From the NCBI GenBank assembly GCA_963719945.1, contig CAVRDX010000001.1, positions 320,001 through 384,000 on the forward strand: DNA of 64,000 bases, in the 5' to 3' direction. The notes under the pieces are model-generated. The model had not been told where the DNA came from, did not search any database, and saw only the letters and a program-made list of their open reading frames with translations. A program made the translations under genes and the position numbers. This document shows positions 5,106 to 26,265 of the stretch, in pieces (positions within the stretch are counted from its first letter, which is position 1; the number at the start of each line of letters is the position of its first letter). The DNA is from an uncultured Thermoplasmata archaeon. GTDB taxonomy: Archaea; Thermoplasmatota; Thermoplasmata; UBA10834.

Positions 5106-5822
5106 TTGGCCGATGCACTATCAATCGCCGACTTGGAGCGAATGAGAGTCGGTGAACCATTCTTCAGCAGAAAGAATCGAGTGTTCAGAGTGAATCTTGA
5201 AGGAAGGATATGCGTGGCCAAGGTCTCTGGACCAGGACGGGAGAACCTGATTGCACACGAATATGAAGTCCTGTGCAAATGCAGACGGTATGGAGTACCT
5301 GTTCCTGAGCCTATCATGCAATTGAAGGATGCATTCATCATGAGCGCTGTTGACGGAGATAATGCGTCCGAGGTCTTTGATTCATGTTTCGAAATCTCGA
5401 GTAATAGTGCAGGTGATACGAAATTGGGCCAACTTGCCGATCATGTCGCATCTTGGCTCTACTCTTTTCATAAAGCGTTCGATTTCGAATATATCAGAGG
5501 CGATTCGATACTTCGCAATTTCATCGAAGTTCCAGGAGGACTGGTCGGGATTGATCTCGAGGAGTCCCATGAAGGCGACCCGATTGAAGATCTGGGGCAA
5601 GTATGCGCGTACATCATAGCCACAAGACCAATGTTCATTGATGCGAAGTTCGATTTCGCAAGGGCAATAGTTGCTGAGTATGAGGATAGAAGCAAGAGTG
5701 ACATTAGGTTGAAACTACCACGTTCTGTGTCTTGTGCGCTGAGGTATTATGGTGGGTTCAGGAGTGATTGCGCGCTGATGTGCGAATGGGCGGACCGGAT
5801 AGCCTCCTGGAGCAAATTCTAG
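5106..5822 (+). CDS. Protein-kinase-like phosphotransferase (APH/choline kinase/RIO-like)
   Basis: VAK lysine, HEYEVL, GVPVPEP, RGDSILRNF catalytic loop, IDLEE. Confidence 0.75.
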   Translation: MADALSIADLERMRVGEPFFSRKNRVFRVNLEGRICVAKVSGPGRENLIAHEYEVLCKCRRYGVPVPEPIMQLKDAFIMSAVDGDNASEVFDSCFEISSNSAGDTKLGQLADHVASWLYSFHKAFDFEYIRGDSILRNFIEVPGGLVGIDLEESHEGDPIEDLGQVCAYIIATRPMFIDAKFDFARAIVAEYEDRSKSDIRLKLPRSVSCALRYYGGFRSDCALMCEWADRIASWSKF

Positions 5823-6568
5823 ATGTGTATGATCGAATCGATCTCATAGCATCTGGAGAAATATATGATGGCAATAGCCAGCGCAATGGTTGATATCACC
5901 AGCAAGATATCCCATGCAGTCATTCTGAGTGGCTTGAGCAATGTCCGTTTCGGGTACGCGCCGAATCCCCTGCCCGTCATGGATGCCGCAAGAGTGTTGA
6001 CCTTGGACATCGCTGAGATCAGCATCGGCATGGTTGTATATCTTGCAGCTCTGAAGATACCCTTGATGCTCTTGTCCAATTTCATGCCTCTGGTGACCTG
6101 AGCTTCGCGAACTGCACTCAGTTCCATCTGGAAGACAGGGACGAATCTCATAGCCAATGCTGGTAGGTAGGCGAACCTGTAGGGGGCTCCCGAACTTATG
6201 AGCGCAGAGGAGAAATCAGAGGCTCTTGTCGTAGCGACGAATATCCATGACATCGTGATCAAAGCCATGAATCTTCCCGCTATCAACACTCCTGTTTCTA
6301 TTCCTCCCCAATTGACATCAAGGAACAGTATTCTCAGGGCGACTTCTCCGGAATGGTTGAATATCACTTGAGCGAGGAAAATAGCGAATGCGAACCACAT
6401 GACCCCTTTTGTGAAGGTGCTTCTGGCATTTGTGAATACCTTGGCCAATATCACCACAGCCACAAACATAACCATGTACGCAGGATCTGAGATCTGGAAG
6501 ACCATGACCGATAGCACTATCAGGGTGAGGAATTTGGCCAAAGGATTGACGGCGTGAGGTCTACCCAT
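5819..6568 (-). CDS. ecfT: ECF transporter transmembrane T component
   Basis: NPLAK, ALAMRFVP, AQVTRG and SMTGRGF conserved Arg motifs. Confidence 0.9.
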   Translation of the reverse strand: MGRPHAVNPLAKFLTLIVLSVMVFQISDPAYMVMFVAVVILAKVFTNARSTFTKGVMWFAFAIFLAQVIFNHSGEVALRILFLDVNWGGIETGVLIAGRFMALITMSWIFVATTRASDFSSALISSGAPYRFAYLPALAMRFVPVFQMELSAVREAQVTRGMKLDKSIKGIFRAARYTTMPMLISAMSKVNTLAASMTGRGFGAYPKRTLLKPLRMTAWDILLVISTIALAIAIIYFSRCYEIDSIIHI

Positions 6569-8033
6569 CCATCTTCCCTCCGATTGGCAGGAGTTGCTTC
6601 CATGACTCTTCGGATATTTCTTTTACGGCTCCATCTGCAACTGTCTTTCCGTTCTTCATGATCAGAACGTCTGTGCAGAATCCTCGTGCGAACGCGATGT
6701 CGTGGGTCACGATTATTATTGTCTTGCCAGATCTCTGAAGATTGGCAAGCAATTCCATGATCTTGGACACATTATCCTCGTCCTGTCCTGCGAACGGTTC
6801 GTCCAACAGGAGTATGCTCGGACCATGGGCAGATGCGGATCTGATGTTCACCCTTCTCTTCTGTCCGAAGCTGAGGCATTGAGGATGGACGTATCTTCTG
6901 ACTCCTTCGGCGCCCTCAAAAAACTCAATTGAGTTCTCCGCCTCTTGCATCGATGTGCCAAAGTTCTGAGGTCCGAACTTGATCTCCTTCTCGACAGTCT
7001 TCTCGAACATCTGGTGATTCGGATTCTGGAAGACCAATCCGATGTCTCTCCCCAGTACCCATGGCTCGACAGGGTTATTCTTGGTTATACGATGATTCTT
7101 GAATTCTATCGAACCTGAGGATACCTTGATTAGCCCCATGATATGTTTCAGCAGAGTCGTCTTCCCTGAGCCGTTCTCTCCCATAAGCGCGACCACTGCT
7201 CCATCCGTCACCGTGAATTCGACATCTTCCAGTATTCTTTTCTCCCCAATCTGATAATTGAGGCCATTCACCGTAAGAATGGTTCCATTCCTTGGGACGA
7301 CCTCTGGATAAATGCGCGCCTCTTTTAGTGATCTGCAGATATCCGCGAACTTCAGGTCTTCAGCAGTGCAATCATGCGATATTTTGCCCCTATCCATAAC
7401 GATGATCCGAGTCGCCATATCCATGAATTCATGGACTCGGTGCTCCACGACAACTACTGTCATCTTCCTTACGGTTCTGAGCTTCTCGATGGCTAATACG
7501 ACTTCAGCAACGGACTTCGGGTCAAGGCTTGATGTCGGCTCATCAAGTATCAATATCTTCGGATCGAGCGCGAGCATGGACGCTATGGCTACCTTCTGCT
7601 TCTCCCCTCCCGATAGAGTGGATATGTCTCGATCTATCAGGTGAGAAGCATTGACTGATTCCAGCGTTTCGTGGACTTTCTGCCGGATATCTTCTTCCCT
7701 GAATCTAAAATTCTCAAGGCCGAAGGCAATTTCTTCTTCGACCGTTTCGGTGCAGAACTGGGTCTCTGGATCCTGTTGCACCATTGCTATGAATCGTGCA
7801 GTATCAATTGGATCGACCAGCTCATCTCCATCTATTCTGATCGAGCCGGATAGTTCTGCGGGTATGATCTCAGGTATGAATCTGCATACGGCCTGCATGG
7901 CAGTCGATTTCCCAGATGCGCTATTGCCAGCTAGCACGACGAACTCGCCGTGTCCTATTGAGAATGATATATCTTGGACGGCAAGTATTGACCTATTCTC
8001 ATACCTGACGCACAGGTGCGATACTTCGAGCAT
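6561..8033 (-). CDS. ecfA: ECF transporter duplicated ATPase (A-A' fusion)
   Basis: Two NBDs: GNSASGKS/QDPETQ/LSGGEKQ/LDEPT and GENGSGKT/FQNP/LSFGQK/LDEPF. Confidence 0.93.
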   Translation of the reverse strand: MLEVSHLCVRYENRSILAVQDISFSIGHGEFVVLAGNSASGKSTAMQAVCRFIPEIIPAELSGSIRIDGDELVDPIDTARFIAMVQQDPETQFCTETVEEEIAFGLENFRFREEDIRQKVHETLESVNASHLIDRDISTLSGGEKQKVAIASMLALDPKILILDEPTSSLDPKSVAEVVLAIEKLRTVRKMTVVVVEHRVHEFMDMATRIIVMDRGKISHDCTAEDLKFADICRSLKEARIYPEVVPRNGTILTVNGLNYQIGEKRILEDVEFTVTDGAVVALMGENGSGKTTLLKHIMGLIKVSSGSIEFKNHRITKNNPVEPWVLGRDIGLVFQNPNHQMFEKTVEKEIKFGPQNFGTSMQEAENSIEFFEGAEGVRRYVHPQCLSFGQKRRVNIRSASAHGPSILLLDEPFAGQDEDNVSKIMELLANLQRSGKTIIIVTHDIAFARGFCTDVLIMKNGKTVADGAVKEISEESWKQLLPIGGKMDG

Positions 8034-9116
8034 CTACCTCACTTCGATCTTGATGACGTCCTCGACCCAATACGCACCTTCATATTCAGCAGCTACCAGT
8101 GTATAGATGTCATCTTCCACGGTCAGTATTAGGCGGTCATCCGACATGACGCTCACAAATGAAAAAACCACTGTGTAGCCATCACTTCCCCAAATGACCA
8201 CATCTGAAGCATCATCCCCAGGAGACGATTCTTCTATTATGATATTGACGGGCACACCTGTATAGTTCGTGGGTGGTACATATGTCACTACGCCTTTGAG
8301 TTCGGCGTTGATAGTGATTTCCTGGTTCTCGAAGTCACCGTACCGGAAATAATACGGATTCTGCACATCGCCGGTTATTTCAACGGTATCTGAACCTGGA
8401 AGGACGAAGACGAACATGTAATAATACACTCCTCCGATGGCGAAAACTGCCAGGAACGCAACGACGACCGACATCGCTGCGATGGCCTTCTTCTTCTTTC
8501 CCTTCTGCTCCAGGTACGCCTTCTCATCGAACTCGGGTGAATCCACCATCATCGGTTTTCGTGCACGGACGATTCCCGATGTCTCTAATGTGTCCAGCAT
8601 CTGGAGCACGAGCCATCCGCCGAATATCATCCCTGATGCATATGCCAACATACACAGCATGGCAATTAGTATGATTGGGACTCCGGAGAAGAAGAATATC
8701 TGGAAGACCACGACATTGGCTGCCGCGGATAGTCCTCCTGCGAATGTGTACGCAAAGATGTTCCGATCGGATTTGGTGCTGTCTTTGAACATCACTATGT
8801 CGGGAATGATGCCTTGGATCACAGAGACCACGACTATTACGATCCCGTGAGTGCTCCCCATGAATAATTCGATTATACCCTTGACGAGTCCCGTGACGGT
8901 GCCTGCCCCCTTCTTTCTCGTAAGGGCTATTGCCAGCATGATCCAGATGACATGCAATCCTGAAAGGAACTGCCCCGCACCGAAAGGCACGCCAACGATA
9001 TGGTTCACCATGTTCCCCAGGTAGCCCACATATGTCGAAAGCACCCCCCCCAATGCGGACAGAAGAGCTATCGTCACAAGATCTTTCGTGCTGAAGTGAT
9101 ACTTAATGTCGGTCAC
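8034..9116 (-). CDS. ECF S component (YkoE/ABC_cobalt-like) fused to a C-terminal extracytoplasmic molybdopterin-oxidoreductase-like domain
   Basis: About six N-terminal TM helices (KDLVTIALLSALGG...RKKGAG), a further TM, then YTGVPV...GSDGY...YWVEDVIKIEV. GTG start at 9116 overlaps the upstream TGA. Confidence 0.8.
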   Translation of the reverse strand: MTDIKYHFSTKDLVTIALLSALGGVLSTYVGYLGNMVNHIVGVPFGAGQFLSGLHVIWIMLAIALTRKKGAGTVTGLVKGIIELFMGSTHGIVIVVVSVIQGIIPDIVMFKDSTKSDRNIFAYTFAGGLSAAANVVVFQIFFFSGVPIILIAMLCMLAYASGMIFGGWLVLQMLDTLETSGIVRARKPMMVDSPEFDEKAYLEQKGKKKKAIAAMSVVVAFLAVFAIGGVYYYMFVFVLPGSDTVEITGDVQNPYYFRYGDFENQEITINAELKGVVTYVPPTNYTGVPVNIIIEESSPGDDASDVVIWGSDGYTVVFSFVSVMSDDRLILTVEDDIYTLVAAEYEGAYWVEDVIKIEVR

Positions 9117-10603
9117 GCCCCGTCCAATATCGTTATGCTGACTACATTGCTGACCCATCTAGCGCCAGCAGAGGCGTTGATATCGTATCCCTGTCCCTCG
9201 TACGATGTCAATTCGCAGTCGGAGTTACTGTAGAGGCCATCGTCCGGCAGCATCGCCAGCCTCGGTCCGTCCTGCCATTCGGGTGCACTGAGATCATCGT
9301 ACGCTATCGCGATCACCATGAAACCCTGCAATTCTAGCCATGTCTCGCTCGGGTAGACGTTCAGATACCCGAAATCTTGATAGTAGGTGTCAATGGATTC
9401 GATCCTGAGCAAATCCCCTTCCTCCATGCCGCCGACTTGCGCCAGCAGGTCGGAGATCAATATGCCCGTATAGTCTCCTTGACCGCCGATGTTCCCGTAT
9501 GCGTTCTCATATGACGAGTACTTGTGAATCTGGGTCATCTGTCCTAGATCCTCATAGGTAAGGTTGACGACCGTGCCGTCCTTTCCCGTTATCGATATGA
9601 AATCTCCCATCAGTCCAAAGTCGATATCGGTCTTTTCATATGAGATGGATGAAGACGAAACTTCGACAGACACATAGTGGTGGGTGCCGTTGTCAAGGGA
9701 TGCGCCTGCACCGCCCGTTATAATGAACGCTGTGTTCTCTATCTTCTGGTAGTGGAACGCGTGCACATGTCCGGTGAACACCGCGTCTACCTCATCTTCA
9801 AGGACGAACTCCTGGAATCTCTCACACGAATCCAGGTCGAGCGTGTGATTATCTGTGAATGGGTCGTAGCTCGGTGCGTGAGTCACCACGACCTTCCTCT
9901 CCGCATTCTTGAAAATCTCTCTCATCCATTGAATTTCCTCCTCCGATATGTTCAAATCGGACGAGTCCACAATCGCGAATGTTATCCCCGAGTATGCGAA
10001 CGAATAAGACATCGGAGCGAACCTTTTCTGATAATCGATGCCCTCATCGCTCTTGATGTCGTGGTTTCCAGGGGTCGTGTAGATTGGGATCGGGGATACA
10101 TCGAAAGCTGCTTCCAAAGCATCGAATTCCTTTGGCAATCCAGATGGCGTCATGTCTCCACAGTGTATCACGAATTCGTAATCCGCTATGTCGCTGAGGA
10201 TGGTTTCCAGCATCGAATTGAATCCTTGGCTGTCCCCGAGAACAACGAACTTGAACTCGGACTTCTCATCCGTAGTCAGTTCGTATCTATCCCTGCCTTT
10301 CTCTGCCATGAACGAGACGTTCGTTCCATCTCGTGATATTGTATCATCATAGTCTATGATCTGGGCATCTGGATGGCAGTTAGTGAGAATGACCTCTCCT
10401 GAAAAACCATGGAGTGACAGGGTCACTTCAGGGGAGAGGCATCTAAAAATGATCTTGTTGGAGTTTTCAGAAAGCAAGGTGCCTCCAGTGATCTCTGCTC
10501 CTTCATCTGCACGCAGGAACACAGTCATCGATGCCGATAGCAGACAAGCTATGGCTATCGAGCCGATCACCAGGGCAATCTTGCTTCTCTTTGAGTTTAT
10601 CAT
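9113..10603 (-). CDS. Membrane-anchored calcineurin-like metallophosphoesterase fused to a molybdopterin-oxidoreductase-like domain
   Basis: N-terminal anchor; GDSQG, GDMT, GNHD, THAP, GHVH motifs; C-terminal YTGILISDLL...SIDTY...GPRLA...RWVSNVVSI. Confidence 0.85.
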   Translation of the reverse strand: MINSKRSKIALVIGSIAIACLLSASMTVFLRADEGAEITGGTLLSENSNKIIFRCLSPEVTLSLHGFSGEVILTNCHPDAQIIDYDDTISRDGTNVSFMAEKGRDRYELTTDEKSEFKFVVLGDSQGFNSMLETILSDIADYEFVIHCGDMTPSGLPKEFDALEAAFDVSPIPIYTTPGNHDIKSDEGIDYQKRFAPMSYSFAYSGITFAIVDSSDLNISEEEIQWMREIFKNAERKVVVTHAPSYDPFTDNHTLDLDSCERFQEFVLEDEVDAVFTGHVHAFHYQKIENTAFIITGGAGASLDNGTHHYVSVEVSSSSISYEKTDIDFGLMGDFISITGKDGTVVNLTYEDLGQMTQIHKYSSYENAYGNIGGQGDYTGILISDLLAQVGGMEEGDLLRIESIDTYYQDFGYLNVYPSETWLELQGFMVIAIAYDDLSAPEWQDGPRLAMLPDDGLYSNSDCELTSYEGQGYDINASAGARWVSNVVSITILDGA

Positions 10604-10611
10604 GCTTCGAC

Positions 10612-12187
10612 TCAGATTGGCAGGTTCTCGAGGTCTATGTCCACCACGTTGCTGATTTTCATCGAGCCCGGCAGGAACTCGTTCACGAGCCTCAGAGGCG
10701 CCATGTCTGTGAGCATCTCCCAGTCAAGCATGAACGCGAGAACGAGAGTATCGTTGAACGCCGCCGTTGCCGAATCGATCGTCACATCGTACCATCGGAT
10801 GCCGTGAGCACTATGTCGTAGCCTTCGTCGGCCAATGTGCTGTTCAGCTCGTAGTGGCTCTCGTCCGTTCCATCCATCACTGCAACCAGGAGCCACAGTG
10901 GCAGACCTGCGTAGGTGTGCGCTACTTCCTCACTATCGGTGTAATTGTAGTACACTGCGTGCACTCCACCGTAGTTGGTGTATGTGAAGTTCTTCGCGTG
11001 GAGTCCCGAGTAGTATGTTGCGACATATGTCTCTGCAGTTATCACCGCGCTGGTCAATCCCGTCAGGTTCAGAGTCCAGGTCGGGACATCATGCATGTCG
11101 ACGATCGAGATATTCTCGATGGACTTGATCCTCTGACCTGATGTCAGACCATCACCGACGAGCTTGAGCGGGAATTCGTCATCTGAAAGCAGCTCTCCGT
11201 CGAGCCTATTCGCGACGATCAGGTGTCGTTCCTTGCTACTTGCAGCGAGGTGAATGGACTTGTCGGCTCAATAGCCATCCGATGCCATCACCGTCACATT
11301 GTAGCCCGCCTGTGCAAGCAAATCGTTGAATAGGTAGTCGGTGGCAGGTCCATCGGCACCATCGACTGCGGAGACGAGGGTCCAGAGTGCGACACCTGTG
11401 TACTCATGGGTTCCAGTCTCGTTCTCGAAGGTCCATGATGCAGCATGGTATTCGCAGGAGGCAAGGGATTCGAAAGTCTGCCTGTCGATCTGAAGGTCTG
11501 TCACGCCACTCAGGTTGAGTGTCCAATCCTTCATGAATGGAAGGATGGTGATCTCTTCGACGTATTTCGCCCAGAATTGTCCATCGGTTATGGGGGCTGA
11601 CTCGTCAACAATGGCTATGCGCAGGTCCATATCTTCCAGGGGTAATCCGTCCTGCGCATAGGCCACGATCATCGTGAAATCACCTTCTCCGAGGAGCGAT
11701 CCATCCTCAGGATCGTAGTGTGCGAAAGTGCCGTCCTCGACCTGGCTTGAACTATATGCCATCGTGTAGCCGTCGGTGGAGACAACCTCAAGGCTATAGT
11801 CCGTGCCTGAGTACAACAGATCGACGAAATCTGCAAGGGGTATTCCCGTGAATTCAAAGGGTCCTTCTATGGTCCCAGTGGTCTTCTTGAAGCTACCCGA
11901 AGCTGTGGTTGCGGTCATGTCCTTCAGCTCCTCCATCGTAAGGTTGATTGAGGCCTGGTCCTTTGTGACGGTGAGCACCGTGGTGCCTTCGGGCGTCTCA
12001 TCGTCGTCCGTATTCTGAGTGAGCATGTACCCCAATGGTACTGCGACCAAAAGCACGATGATCACTGCAAGAGCGATCAGCTTGGTGGTCGAACCCATGC
12101 CGGCCTTCTTTGGGGCTGCGATGCTTTCCTTGCCTTCTCATTGATTTCATTGGTGCCCGTTTCCGGGGCTTTCGAAGAATCTGACAT
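10612..12187 (-). pseudogene. Membrane-anchored surface protein with three tandem molybdopterin-oxidoreductase-like domains; interrupted (pseudogene or assembly error)
   Basis: ATG at 12187 with RBS GGAGGAG is one base out of frame with ORF 11268-12098. In-frame TGA at 11268-11270 is followed by a short locally shifted stretch, then ORF 10782-11096 continues in the same frame. A frameshift near 10795 leads into ORF 10612-10896. Repeated motifs WTLNL.G / Y.G.PLW.LV / A.DGY / PL.LV. Confidence 0.75.
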
Positions 12188-12316
12188 TACGTAGCTCCTC
12201 CCGATATGTCTATATGAGCATACCGCCGATAACGAGGAGCAATAAAAAGCTATCGCTTTTTCGAGCCCATTTCAGGACCTTGGATATCACAGATTGCCAG
12301 GTGACTCACAGATCAT

Positions 12317-13105
12317 TCATCGTAGGGTCCCAGCGAACACCTGCCATGCCAATGCGGATTTCGCAACGAGGCTGAGGATGATGTAGACCCTCTCGCCGTG
12401 GAGATAGTCCTTCCATTTTCCTTTGGCTCTGTATTGCAGGACCATGTTCACCGCGAACACGTTGAAGAAGATCGCAAGGGATATGAATATGAAATACACG
12501 AAGGTCGGCACCGAATTCCCGGAACCCAGGAGCGCTCCGAAGAAATATATTCCCAATACTATCCATACAAGCAGCCCTGCAAAGCAGCCAAAGAAGTACG
12601 ATGTCCAATTCGTCCGCTTCGTCGTCTGGTTGTGCAGTTCCATCATCAGACCGAACAGGTTCATTGTCGCGTTGAGTGAGAATATGAGTATCAAACTGGA
12701 GAGTTCGAATATGCCACATAGCATCGCAATGACTATTACCATGACCGAGGAGCTTGCAGCATACTCATACCATCTGGCATAGTTGATCCCTTCCTTCAGG
12801 TTCCTGACGTACCATGGATATCCCTTGGGCGAGGACACAGCGAAATGAGCGATCGCAGAGATGAACAGGAACGATGCGACCATGGGTCCAAGTTGAAGGT
12901 TGATTAGAGTGTCTGTCTGGGAGTTTATGGTCTCCGTGACTGGATCATAATGCAGGAGAGTGAGATTGATGGGTAACGATGAACTCTTGCTCAACCAGAG
13001 CATCAATGTCCCTTGGATTAGGTGCAGAAAGCCCATTGCGATGTTGAATTTCCTCAGGCCCACGAATCTAGATTCCTTAACGGATTCCTCCAGATTTCCA
13101 CCCAC
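12317..13105 (-). CDS. Heliorhodopsin
   Basis: LRKFN..MGFLHLIQ, AIAHF, RWYEY counterion motif, SSSVM, GERVYIILSLVAKSALAW with the retinal-binding Lys. Confidence 0.95.
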   Translation of the reverse strand: MGGNLEESVKESRFVGLRKFNIAMGFLHLIQGTLMLWLSKSSSLPINLTLLHYDPVTETINSQTDTLINLQLGPMVASFLFISAIAHFAVSSPKGYPWYVRNLKEGINYARWYEYAASSSVMVIVIAMLCGIFELSSLILIFSLNATMNLFGLMMELHNQTTKRTNWTSYFFGCFAGLLVWIVLGIYFFGALLGSGNSVPTFVYFIFISLAIFFNVFAVNMVLQYRAKGKWKDYLHGERVYIILSLVAKSALAWQVFAGTLR

Positions 13106-24321: not shown

Positions 24322-26265
24322 TTGTTCATCTTCAATACTTGTCCCAGAGACTGTTATGATACATGTGCGATTGTAACGCGAGTCAGGAACGGGAAGTTGC
24401 ACTCGACAGAACCCAATAAAAAGCATCCTTTCACTGGCGATCTACTCTGCCCGAAAGGGAGGAATATCTCACAATACGTATACTCGCGGCAGCGGATCCA
24501 GTATCCTCTCAGAAGAACAGGTGAGAAGGGTGCAGGAAAGTTCGAGGAGATCACTTGGAACGACGCTCTCAAGGAGATTGCTGAGAACATTCGAGAAATA
24601 TCTCTCCGGCATGGTCCGGAATCGATACTGCAATTCGATTACGCTGGAACAATGGGCATGGTTCAGAGATACTTTCCGACCAGATTCTTCAATGTCATCG
24701 GGGCATCTAGGGTATCACACACCATATGCTCTCGTGCTGGAGAAAAGGCCCTTGAGATAGTCTACGGTTCCACACTGGGTATGCTTCCTGATGAGATTGA
24801 GAAATGCCGACTCATTGTGCTCTGGGGGATGAACCCTGCATGGAGCAGCGCTCATACGTTCGAGATGCTGAAGCGCGCCAAGAAATGCGGCACGAAGATC
24901 TATATCGTCGATCCTGTGAGATCGGCCACGACCGAGCTCGGGACGCATCTTCAAATCAAACCGACCACCGATGCAGCTCTCGCCCTTGGTATCATAAACC
25001 ACCTTATTGAGAACAGGCTATGTAACGAAGTCTTCCTCGACCAGAACACCACTGGCTTCGACCGGTTGGTGGGGGCTGCCAGCAAATATGACATGACCAC
25101 GATTTCCAAGACCACGGGTCTCAAGACTCGCGAGATCGAGGATTTCATAGGAGATTTCGTCTCTCTCCGACCTAACTGTATAATGATTGGATACGGGATG
25201 CAGCGTCATAGGAATGGCGGTGATATGGTCCGTGCGATCAGCATACTGCCCGCATTGATTGGGGAGAACCGCGGGTTCTATTATTCGACGGACCTCGGCG
25301 ATTTCGATATGGATTATCTGGAGGGTGCCTCACTCCGTACTCGGAAGCGTGTGGAGCATAACATGGTGGACATCGGCCGTACCCTTCAGTCGAACAAGAT
25401 CAAGATGATGTTCGTATACAATTCTAATCCGCTTGCAACGCTGCCCAATCAGAGATTGTTGCGAGATGGCTTCATGAAGAAGGACATATTCACGGTCGTT
25501 CATGACCTGTTCATGACCGACACAGCGGACCATGCGGATATCGTGCTTCCTGCAACCAGCTTTTTCGAGCATTTCGATATCCATACCTCGTATCTCCACA
25601 ATTATTTCTCGATAAATGAGAAGGCGATCGAGCCGATAGGCGAAGCCAGGTCCAACAGTGATGTCTTCCGATCGCTCGCCAAGATAATGAATCTGCAGAC
25701 CAAGGAACTCTTCGAAGAAGATGAGAAGGTCGCACGCACGCTGTTATCGAAGAGCAAGGTCGTCGAGGGCAAGTTTGAGGACCTGAAGAAGAAGGGCTTC
25801 TTGAGGATGAAGGTCCCGAACAGGTCAATCTACAACACGCCCACTCGGAAGATCGAATTATATTCCGCTGCGGCAGATGCCGCTGGATTGGGCGGATTGC
25901 CTGTTCATGTCGAGGTGCGGAGAACTCAGCCATTCATCCTGCTTTCACCGGTGCATAAATTCCTCGTCCGGTCCCAGTATCATCTCCGATGGCCGGATAT
26001 CCGACCAGTGGTATACATGAACGAGAAGGACGCCCGTGAAGAGAGCATCGAGAGCGGATCTCTGATCACGCTCAAGAACGAATTCGGCGAATGGTCCGTT
26101 ACATGTGAGATCTCTGACATCGTCCTTCCTGGGGTCCTGGTGACATATTCCGTGCTATGGCCTAAATTGTGTGGCGGCACGAACGTCAACTTCGTCACGA
26201 CGGATTTCGTGCAGAAGTACGGGCAGAACTCCGCCTTCAACTCGACCTTCGTCAAGATAATCTAA
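24322..26265 (+). CDS. Molybdopterin (DMSO reductase superfamily) oxidoreductase, uncharacterised subfamily
   Basis: CPRDCYDTC...CPKG FeS motif, HTICS (Cys ligand), WGMNP, DLFMTDTADHADIVLPA. Confidence 0.9.
   Translation: MFIFNTCPRDCYDTCAIVTRVRNGKLHSTEPNKKHPFTGDLLCPKGRNISQYVYSRQRIQYPLRRTGEKGAGKFEEITWNDALKEIAENIREISLRHGPESILQFDYAGTMGMVQRYFPTRFFNVIGASRVSHTICSRAGEKALEIVYGSTLGMLPDEIEKCRLIVLWGMNPAWSSAHTFEMLKRAKKCGTKIYIVDPVRSATTELGTHLQIKPTTDAALALGIINHLIENRLCNEVFLDQNTTGFDRLVGAASKYDMTTISKTTGLKTREIEDFIGDFVSLRPNCIMIGYGMQRHRNGGDMVRAISILPALIGENRGFYYSTDLGDFDMDYLEGASLRTRKRVEHNMVDIGRTLQSNKIKMMFVYNSNPLATLPNQRLLRDGFMKKDIFTVVHDLFMTDTADHADIVLPATSFFEHFDIHTSYLHNYFSINEKAIEPIGEARSNSDVFRSLAKIMNLQTKELFEEDEKVARTLLSKSKVVEGKFEDLKKKGFLRMKVPNRSIYNTPTRKIELYSAAADAAGLGGLPVHVEVRRTQPFILLSPVHKFLVRSQYHLRWPDIRPVVYMNEKDAREESIESGSLITLKNEFGEWSVTCEISDIVLPGVLVTYSVLWPKLCGGTNVNFVTTDFVQKYGQNSAFNSTFVKII

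Follow-up and report, generated by a model that had tools for sequence, protein, structure and literature searches.

The thiamine and hydroxymethylpyrimidine (HMP) importer YkoEDC of Bacillus subtilis is a group I energy-coupling factor (ECF) transporter in which an S component of family PF09819, a fused double ATPase and a T component are encoded in one operon. In the S component, YkoE, thiamine is bound by W49, Y46, E77, Q95 and D131, and E77 and Q95 form hydrogen bonds with the aminopyrimidine ring (PMC5037267). The sulfite oxidase (SUOX) enzymes of family PF00174 (SorA, SoxC, YedY/MsrP and nitrate reductase) contain a domain that binds the molybdenum cofactor (Moco). A secreted SUOX-fold protein of Agrobacterium and other Proteobacteria, PruR, lacks the Mo-ligand cysteine and binds monapterin or neopterin; it has a PW motif and a pterin site made up of N102, Y104 and W160, and its gene lies beside that of a DcpA-type diguanylate cyclase/phosphodiesterase (PMC11194511). 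According to a review, any cell that uses Moco has to synthesize it, since the cofactor is too unstable to share, and Caenorhabditis elegans is the only known exception (PMC9026282); in this animal dietary, ready-made cofactor can be bioavailable when it is protein-bound (PMC7849362, PMC9793310). Here we describe a six-gene cluster that joins an ECF transporter of the YkoEDC layout to repeated domains of the SUOX/PruR fold. It lies in a 64,000-nucleotide stretch of the genome of an uncultured Thermoplasmata archaeon (positions 320,001 to 384,000 of contig CAVRDX010000001.1, hereafter the window, to which all unprefixed coordinates refer), and it probably encodes an importer that salvages a Mo/W pyranopterin cofactor, that is, Moco, its tungsten counterpart (Wco) or a close molybdopterin derivative. 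This reading draws on the genes present, their folds, signals of topology, complementary occurrence across genomes and a link to riboswitches, and the substrate is predicted from genomics.

The assembly analyzed comprises 1.78 Mb in 4 contigs and is 87% complete. Six genes form one system, of which five make up a co-oriented operon on the minus strand (5819-12187) whose neighboring genes abut or overlap. This tight coupling had been recognized in a preliminary description of the window, which overlooked the conserved sixth gene, a kinase on the plus strand (5106-5822), and took the first gene of the operon to be intact. The last gene encodes a T component of the CbiQ type (249 aa, 5819-6568, minus strand; PF02361, E 2.8e-26), which matches the TIGR02454 ECF_T_CbiQ model at E 2.9e-12 and 46.8 bits, under the 111.8-bit cut-off. 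It overlaps by 8 nt the gene for a fused EcfA-EcfA' double ATPase (490 aa, 6561-8033, minus strand), a YkoD-like fusion with two ABC_tran domains that scores 353 bits against TIGR04520 and 358 bits against TIGR04521, each above the cut-off. The S component follows (360 aa, 8034-9116, minus strand; PF09819, E 7.5e-19) and carries a SUOX/PruR-fold domain at its C-terminus. Its gene starts at GTG 9116, within a GTGA overlap with the TGA stop of the phosphoesterase gene, and this start fits the length of about 358 aa of the homologues. With an S fold, AA' and T in one operon, the cluster is a group I (dedicated) ECF transporter.

The core of the S component has six helices and is YkoE-like. A profile of the S component detects YkoE (5EDL) among PDB sequences at E 4.5e-9, and a Foldseek search with an AlphaFold2 (AF2) model of the S fusion (pLDDT 82.7) retrieves 5EDL for the core at 5e-6, with a TM score by target of 0.77. 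The S fusion has more than 600 full-length homologues. In the hidden Markov model (HMM) alignment to 5EDL, E77 corresponds to an invariant glutamate (E83) and Q95 to an invariant glutamine (Q101), and the stacking W49 is replaced by an invariant histidine, Y46 by alanine and D131 by glutamine. A pterin, with its aminopyrimidinone ring, could be bound just as well by the retained carboxylate/amide pair. As regards the characters that define thiamine binding in the YkoE family, the set of binding residues is incomplete and there is no genomic link to thiamine. Compared with YkoEDC, the cluster has other residues in place of the stacking tryptophan and the thiazole-binding positions, lacks a THI-box, and has in addition surface proteins, a phosphoesterase, a kinase and, in the S component, a seventh transmembrane helix (six K/R residues before it, none after) followed by the SUOX-fold domain. 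The genomic logic of the cluster, set out below, points to Moco/Wco and not to thiamine.

The window contains five copies of the SUOX/PruR-fold domain (D1 to D5), three in the surface protein and one each in the phosphoesterase and the S component. They had been proposed to be homologous, and BLASTP bears this out (D2-D3 at 3e-19, D1-D4 at 4e-7, D1-D5 at 3e-4 and D3-D5 at 1e-3); the motifs YTG, DGY and W..V are present in the copies. The suggested relationship to the Moco domain of SUOX enzymes is likewise upheld. Pieces of the domains in the window remain below threshold against PF00174 (Oxidored_molyb; E 0.002-0.05), and intact surface-protein orthologues reach 44-66 bits against a cut-off of 24. 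Run against PDB sequences, a profile built from 71 S-fused domains matches SorA and SoxC at E 1.2e-4, and Foldseek aligns the C-terminal domain of the S fusion with SorA, YedY, nitrate reductase, SoxC and PruR, with E-values of 4e-5 to 1e-3 for the SUOX proteins. The PruR structures 7KOS, 7RKB and 7KOM are the best size-matched neighbors in this search (TM by target 0.57-0.62). With an HMM made from the S-fused domain, the copies in the surface protein are only partly recovered. The domains had also been described as lacking cysteine. This applies to the S-fused domain, which has no invariant cysteine among the 71 sequences. It does not extend to one type of surface-protein domain, with an invariant cysteine 18 residues before YTG (residue 408 of P0123; in the window D2, near 11455, minus strand), or to the phosphoesterase domain, with a conserved cysteine close to its C-terminal end. 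A profile of the cysteine-bearing surface-protein domain gave no SUOX match among PDB sequences.

A transmembrane helix precedes each domain copy, flanked by K/R on its N-terminal side and by D/E on the other, a charge bias that supports the outward topology proposed earlier; all copies should face outward. The domain is homologous to that of the SUOX enzymes and shares the Moco-domain fold, and differs from these enzymes in having no dimerization, electron-transfer or catalytic partner domain. Its only fusion partners are a membrane anchor, the S component and the phosphoesterase, and the copies occur in tandem, anchored outside the cell, in genomes unable to make Moco. In being a small, exported, non-enzymatic SUOX fold it resembles PruR, as does the S-fused copy in its lack of a Mo-ligand cysteine. 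The invariant tyrosine of DGY and an invariant tryptophan toward the C-terminus are candidate counterparts of Y104 and W160, which sandwich the pterin in PruR. PruR, however, is a stand-alone sensor that regulates the cyclic di-GMP enzyme DcpA, and the cluster domain occurs in several copies joined to transporter and phosphoesterase proteins, in a gene context without DcpA. The domain family is also tied to tungsten acquisition by an archaeal protein of 665 aa (P0242), a fusion of a genuine WtpA (447 bits, cut-off 355) with SUOX-fold domains at its C-terminus that are relatives of those in the surface protein.

The inventory of cofactor genes in the source genome is consistent with a need for such an importer. 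The genome has three to four AOR-family genes: four matches to AFOR_N were found, three of them in full-length frames of 618-642 aa, and the window itself encodes a molybdopterin oxidoreductase of the DMSO reductase family (647 aa, 24322-26265, plus strand), for which the Fdh-alpha and DmsA models score best, below their cut-offs. The same genome has no match to the families MoaC, MoeA_N, Mob_synth_C (the C-terminal domain of MoaA), MoaE or MoCF_biosynth (MogA), and no SBP_bac_11 (ModA/WtpA) or TupA binding protein; its sole PBP_like_2 protein is PstS, encoded beside pstC and phoU. ThiC is present. The source organism thus has pterin-dependent W/Mo enzymes with no known route to make the pterin or to import the metal. 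Since MoeA and WtpA are both lacking, the metal most likely enters the cell bound to the pterin.

The same pattern emerges from a sample of 201 genomes of the class Thermoplasmata, in which one unpublished genome (G098), on which no conclusion hinges, is among those tallied as lacking the cluster. The S fusion is found in 33 of the 201; most of these belong to families f1 and f16, with scattered cases in three other families. In 20 of these carriers, from three families, the gene order is the same: surface protein, phosphoesterase, S, AA', T and the convergent kinase. All 33 carriers encode AOR-family enzymes (one to six each), and the cluster occurs in none of the 93 AOR-free genomes. MoaC and MoeA are absent from 28 of the 33. 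Among the other five they are intact in three (G102, G027 and G129), and a fourth (G040) has an intact MoeA beside a MoaC fragment. The fifth, G185, has a MoaC frame with five stops and an adjacent truncated MoeA (G185:C4:48611-50094) together with an intact importer; its biosynthesis locus looks as if caught in decay. By comparison, MoaC is found in 53 of the 75 genomes that have AOR-family enzymes and no cluster, and two more have MoeA at contig ends. The contrast holds within families: MoaC is present in 2/15 carriers and 6/8 non-carriers of f1, where MoeA is present in 8/8 non-carriers, and in 3/15 carriers and 8/9 non-carriers of f16. Genera g2 and g41 show it internally as well, and in two closed assemblies of a single contig (G137 and G144) the cluster accompanies three AOR-family enzymes, with neither MoaC nor MoeA. 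WtpA is confined among carriers to the three with intact biosynthesis, compared with 8/9 non-carriers of f16. ThiC, examined as a control, is present in 33/33 carriers and has no complementarity with the cluster. A survey of gene neighborhoods for co-occurrence with Moco/Wco genes had been suggested in the preliminary description, and its outcome is that the cluster tracks the presence of AOR-family enzymes and the loss of MoaC, MoeA and WtpA.

A scan of species-representative genomes extends the system beyond the class. Full-length S fusions, 42-47% identical and with the C-terminal domain included, are found in Syntrophomonadaceae and other Bacillota, Thermovorax subterraneus DSM 21563 (locus L103), Syntrophaceticus, Bipolaricaulota/Acetothermia and several Asgard phyla, and the order of surface-domain, phosphoesterase, S, ATPase and T genes is the same. 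Two Asgard loci and a bacterial one also have a kinase homologue co-oriented with the operon. MoaC is missing from each of the six Asgard carriers and from three bacterial ones, Bipolaricaulota among them, which have 2-10 AOR-family enzymes. The check for riboswitches, also suggested at the outset, connected the bacterial operons with the cofactor. Among 18 bacterial loci run against Rfam, the Moco/Wco riboswitch RF01055 is present on the operon strand in six, at 55-78 bits (gathering score 36), and for most of the others the upstream sequence is not long enough for a judgment. In five of the six (L085, L086, L098, L103 and L104) it precedes the first operon gene by 200-450 nt; in L101 one copy stands at the start of the locus, about 4.4 kb before the first homologous gene detected, and a second copy lies downstream of the T gene. 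The account of RF01055 in PMC2408646 names among the genes it controls moa, the molybdate and tungstate transporters mod and tup, biosynthesis genes and user enzymes, and mentions "other genes of unknown function" in an operon of Syntrophomonas wolfei. Bacterial orthologues of the cluster stand behind this riboswitch in the way that moa, mod and tup genes do. A thiamine pyrophosphate (TPP) riboswitch in the Acetothermia locus L100 (4860-4963, minus strand) lies beside the S-fusion gene on the opposite strand; it was considered as a leader of that gene and rejected, as it heads a separate thiamine salvage operon with a ThiL-like gene and a binding protein.

Together, the fold of the domain, its riboswitch-led operons in bacteria, and an occurrence complementary to that of both pterin synthesis and tungstate uptake make a Mo/W pyranopterin cofactor the probable substrate. 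Several observations nevertheless weigh against this assignment or limit it. It rests on genomics, with binding, transport and enzyme activity predicted. The source genome is only 87% complete. The association in the class has a Fisher p of 8e-8, which is overstated since related genomes are not independent. Three Thermoplasmata and ten Bacillota carriers keep MoaC, so the system is not a simple replacement of biosynthesis. Conversely, 20 AOR-bearing genomes of families f9, f17, f18 and f22, including G008, G017, G021, G033 and G053, have neither MoaC/MoeA nor the cluster; another route to the cofactor must therefore exist, and the complementarity is not exclusive. A search with profile A1 of five genomes that have AOR-family enzymes and lack MoaC and the cluster gave a canonical PF00174/SUOX enzyme in two and no divergent importer; the enzyme of G021 is a canonical SUOX-family protein of 344 aa (L010:7624-8655). 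The lack of MoeA requires that the metal come already bound to the pterin or be inserted by a non-canonical route, and the free cofactor is labile. The phosphoesterase is present in 15/20 related loci and absent or a remnant in 5/20, and the nearest folds to the kinase, Bud32/PRPK and RIO, are atypical protein kinases or ATPases.

Because the genomes in question have no MoaA, MoaC, MoaE or MoeA, neither an oxyanion nor a small pterin alone would suffice for their AOR-family enzymes, and this bears on two other substrates. One is a pterin other than Moco (of the neopterin/monapterin type, a folate or methanopterin precursor, or another heterocycle), with the domains acting as PruR does. The PruR proteins, which bind non-Moco pterins without a Mo-ligand cysteine (PMC11194511), are after all the best size-matched neighbors of the S-fused domain, and this domain has no invariant cysteine either. 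Yet the cluster occurs only in genomes with AOR-family enzymes and tracks the loss of Moco synthesis and WtpA, its bacterial operons stand behind Moco/Wco riboswitches and not those for tetrahydrofolate or others, and a small pterin cannot supply the enzymes, which together make such a substrate unlikely. The other is tungstate or molybdate, imported by what would be an ECF-type replacement of WtpABC with the domains as anion-binding modules. Retention of the cluster in carriers that lost WtpA would be expected for an oxyanion transporter, the fusion of WtpA to cluster-type domains in P0242 is suggestive, and molybdate and tungstate transporters are, in the account of RF01055, commonly under its control (PMC2408646). 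An imported oxyanion would nonetheless leave the carriers, which also lack MoaA, MoaC, MoaE, MoeA and MogA, with no working cofactor for their one to six AOR-family enzymes; the S component is moreover of the vitamin type (YkoE) and not the CbiM/NikM metal type, and the domain has the fold of a pterin binder. We regard oxyanion import as quite improbable.

Thiamine, one of the three ligand classes offered in the preliminary description, would make the cluster an ordinary YkoEDC-type thiamine/HMP importer with extra domains, in which the phosphoesterase dephosphorylates TPP or thiamine monophosphate outside and the kinase re-phosphorylates thiamine inside. The closest solved S component is indeed a thiamine binder whose pyrimidine-binding glutamate and glutamine are kept, YkoD and YkoC have their counterparts in the fused AA' ATPase and the T component, and the kinase has a weak match to ThiK (E 0.029). 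The thiamine kinase ThiK of E. coli belongs to the APH family. Set against these likenesses are the substitutions at W49 (invariant His), Y46 (Ala) and D131 (Gln), the presence of ThiC in all 33 carriers, and the riboswitches: none for TPP in the window or before the operon, Moco/Wco riboswitches as the bacterial leaders, and in L100 a TPP riboswitch that belongs to another operon. Thiamine fits only the ancestry of the S component, and as the substrate it is very improbable. Nothing points to corrinoids, the second class offered. The third, a Mo/W-pterin, is favored, and with it the more general proposal of a cofactor-scavenging relay that feeds an ECF importer; the domains are homologous to each other and related to SUOX proteins, and the cluster does not match a characterized ECF family of known substrate.

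Salvage of a Mo/W pyranopterin cofactor by this system would make the importer a stand-in for de novo cofactor synthesis and tungstate uptake. The outward, non-catalytic SUOX/PruR-fold copies of the surface protein, phosphoesterase and S component would capture the labile cofactor and shield it. Where present, the surface metallophosphoesterase would trim it, and may cleave molybdopterin guanine or cytosine dinucleotide or remove a terminal phosphate. The YkoE-like S component would then receive the pterin from its own fused domain, with AA' and T driving import, and the cytoplasmic kinase would act on the molecule once it is inside, perhaps to re-phosphorylate or trap it, before the cofactor passes to enzymes of the AOR and DMSO reductase families. 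For the phosphoesterase and the kinase these roles, cleavage of dinucleotides or dephosphorylation for the first and re-phosphorylation or trapping for the second, are guesses modeled on other routes of vitamin salvage.

The phosphoesterase (496 aa, 9113-10603, minus strand) is an anchored metallophosphoesterase of the calcineurin type with a C-terminal SUOX-fold domain (PF00149, E 4e-16; 60 bits against a cut-off of 21.5). Of the five metal-binding and catalytic motifs of the family, GDxQG, GDxxxxG, GNHD and GHxH are kept across 21 orthologues, bacterial and Asgard ones included, and the N-terminal anchor has a charge bias of the N-in/C-out kind. Its earlier designation as an extracellular phosphoesterase agrees with the family match, the motifs and the predicted outward orientation, and is qualified by its presence in only 15/20 related loci. 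Its absence or decay in the other five shows it to be accessory.

The kinase gene (238 aa, 5106-5822, plus strand) is convergent with the operon and lies right after the T gene in all 19 related loci that reach that far. A kinase profile finds strong orthologues in 30/33 genomes with the cluster, plus two partial copies, and in 0/168 genomes without it; the kinase, strictly co-occurring, belongs to the system. It is a minimal kinase of a Bud32/RIO/APH-like fold in which every catalytic residue is retained, with the invariant residues K39, E52, G132-D133..N138, D150 and E152-E153, and several orthologues score above the Pfam cut-off for APH. It has no transmembrane segment and is predicted to be cytoplasmic. 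Its AF2 model (pLDDT 94) is closest in Foldseek to PRPK/Bud32 (E 1e-9, TM 0.68-0.70), then to RIO, APH and MTR kinase, and this search does not tell whether it is a kinase of small molecules or an ATPase similar to Bud32. A small-molecule substrate is our guess, by analogy. The possibility that the protein is Bud32 of the KEOPS complex was rejected: its scores against the NCBIfam models are far under the cut-offs and a separate paralogue is present. This lower-scoring kinase of 244 aa is found in every f1 genome, with or without the cluster (for example G000:C1:263050-263604), and is probably the housekeeping KEOPS Bud32. The cluster kinase may have been derived from such a Bud32-type paralogue.

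The statement that no characterized system has this architecture agrees with our literature search, in which no work on prokaryotic Moco or molybdopterin transporters was found beyond that on C. elegans and one speculative sentence on the type XI secretion system. C. elegans provides the only documented acquisition of ready-made Moco from outside (PMC9026282); it is, however, an animal, and its machinery is unrelated to the cluster. The balance of the evidence leans toward the cluster being the first prokaryotic uptake system for a finished Mo/W cofactor, and toward the Thermoplasmata, Asgard and Bipolaricaulota lineages that carry it without synthesis or tungstate transport being Moco/Wco auxotrophs. 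Such a system would be an ECF vitamin importer with a new substrate class, new accessory parts and an architecture in which extracellular capture domains are fused to the transporter. Moco/Wco would then be a "vitamin" exchanged in anoxic microbial communities, and the occurrence of tungsten enzymes in AOR-rich archaea, Asgard included, without biosynthetic or tungstate-uptake genes would be explained. Proteins that bind and stabilize the free cofactor would also be of use in Moco biochemistry and perhaps in delivering the cofactor. The proposal is directly testable: the parts are small, soluble proteins, and T. subterraneus DSM 21563 is a carrier in culture whose operon is headed by a riboswitch.

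The source genome itself carries a local defect in the system. The first gene of the operon (10612-12187, minus strand) encodes an anchored surface protein with three SUOX-fold domains, which had been taken as intact; comparison with the intact gene of L001 (690 aa, in a relative 88% identical) and with P0125 (523 aa, three copies), to which it is 86-88% identical, shows it to be a pseudogene, with intact genes on its flanks. It has a 2-nt insertion near 12134, shortly after the ATG at 12187; a TGA stop at 11268-11270 where GGA is expected; some 15 codons scrambled by a +1/-1 indel pair (about 11260-11215); and, near 10795, a frameshift of -1. An in-frame difference of 492 nt from L001 reflects variation in copy number (four copies in L001, three here) and is not damage; intact orthologues have 3-5 copies. 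Recoding of the TGA codon, for instance as selenocysteine, was rejected, since orthologues have glycine at this position and there are four more frame-disrupting indels. Sequencing error is an unlikely source of the lesions, as neighboring frames of 490, 496 and 521 aa are intact and the five lesions fall within 1.5 kb. Homology to the surface protein is found at the first-gene position in 20/20 related loci. With this gene decayed, the source organism would depend for capture on the domains carried by its phosphoesterase and S component.

The archaeal operon has a conserved operator-like site in place of the bacterial riboswitch. No Rfam match was found in the window at gathering score over the 64 kb, nor at E<=5 around the promoter. 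A TATA-like box lies at about 12241-12249, and about 20 nt downstream of it is an operator-like palindrome, TATGCTC-N5-GA(G)CATA (12205-12222, minus strand), located upstream of the Shine-Dalgarno sequence and the 12187 ATG. Four genera of the family share the box and a palindrome of the form TATGCTC-N4/5-GAGCATA ahead of the first gene; the palindrome is slightly degenerate in the source genus, and the site is unique in the 1.78-Mb genome. Control by a canonical ModE is unsupported, as the source genome has no TOBE/Mop (ModE-type) domain.

Other genes lie close to the cluster. In the source genus a heliorhodopsin gene (12317-13105, minus strand) is directly upstream of the operon, and in genus g20 of family f16 a heliorhodopsin gene adjoins that of the kinase (L024:13712-14446; L029:5090-5845); these two arrangements could reflect a link or coincidence. 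In the close relative represented by L001, genes for an MtmB-family methyltransferase and a B12-binding corrinoid protein (L001:422-2463) lie a few kb from the cluster, and an MTTB-family gene is found near the cluster in L002.

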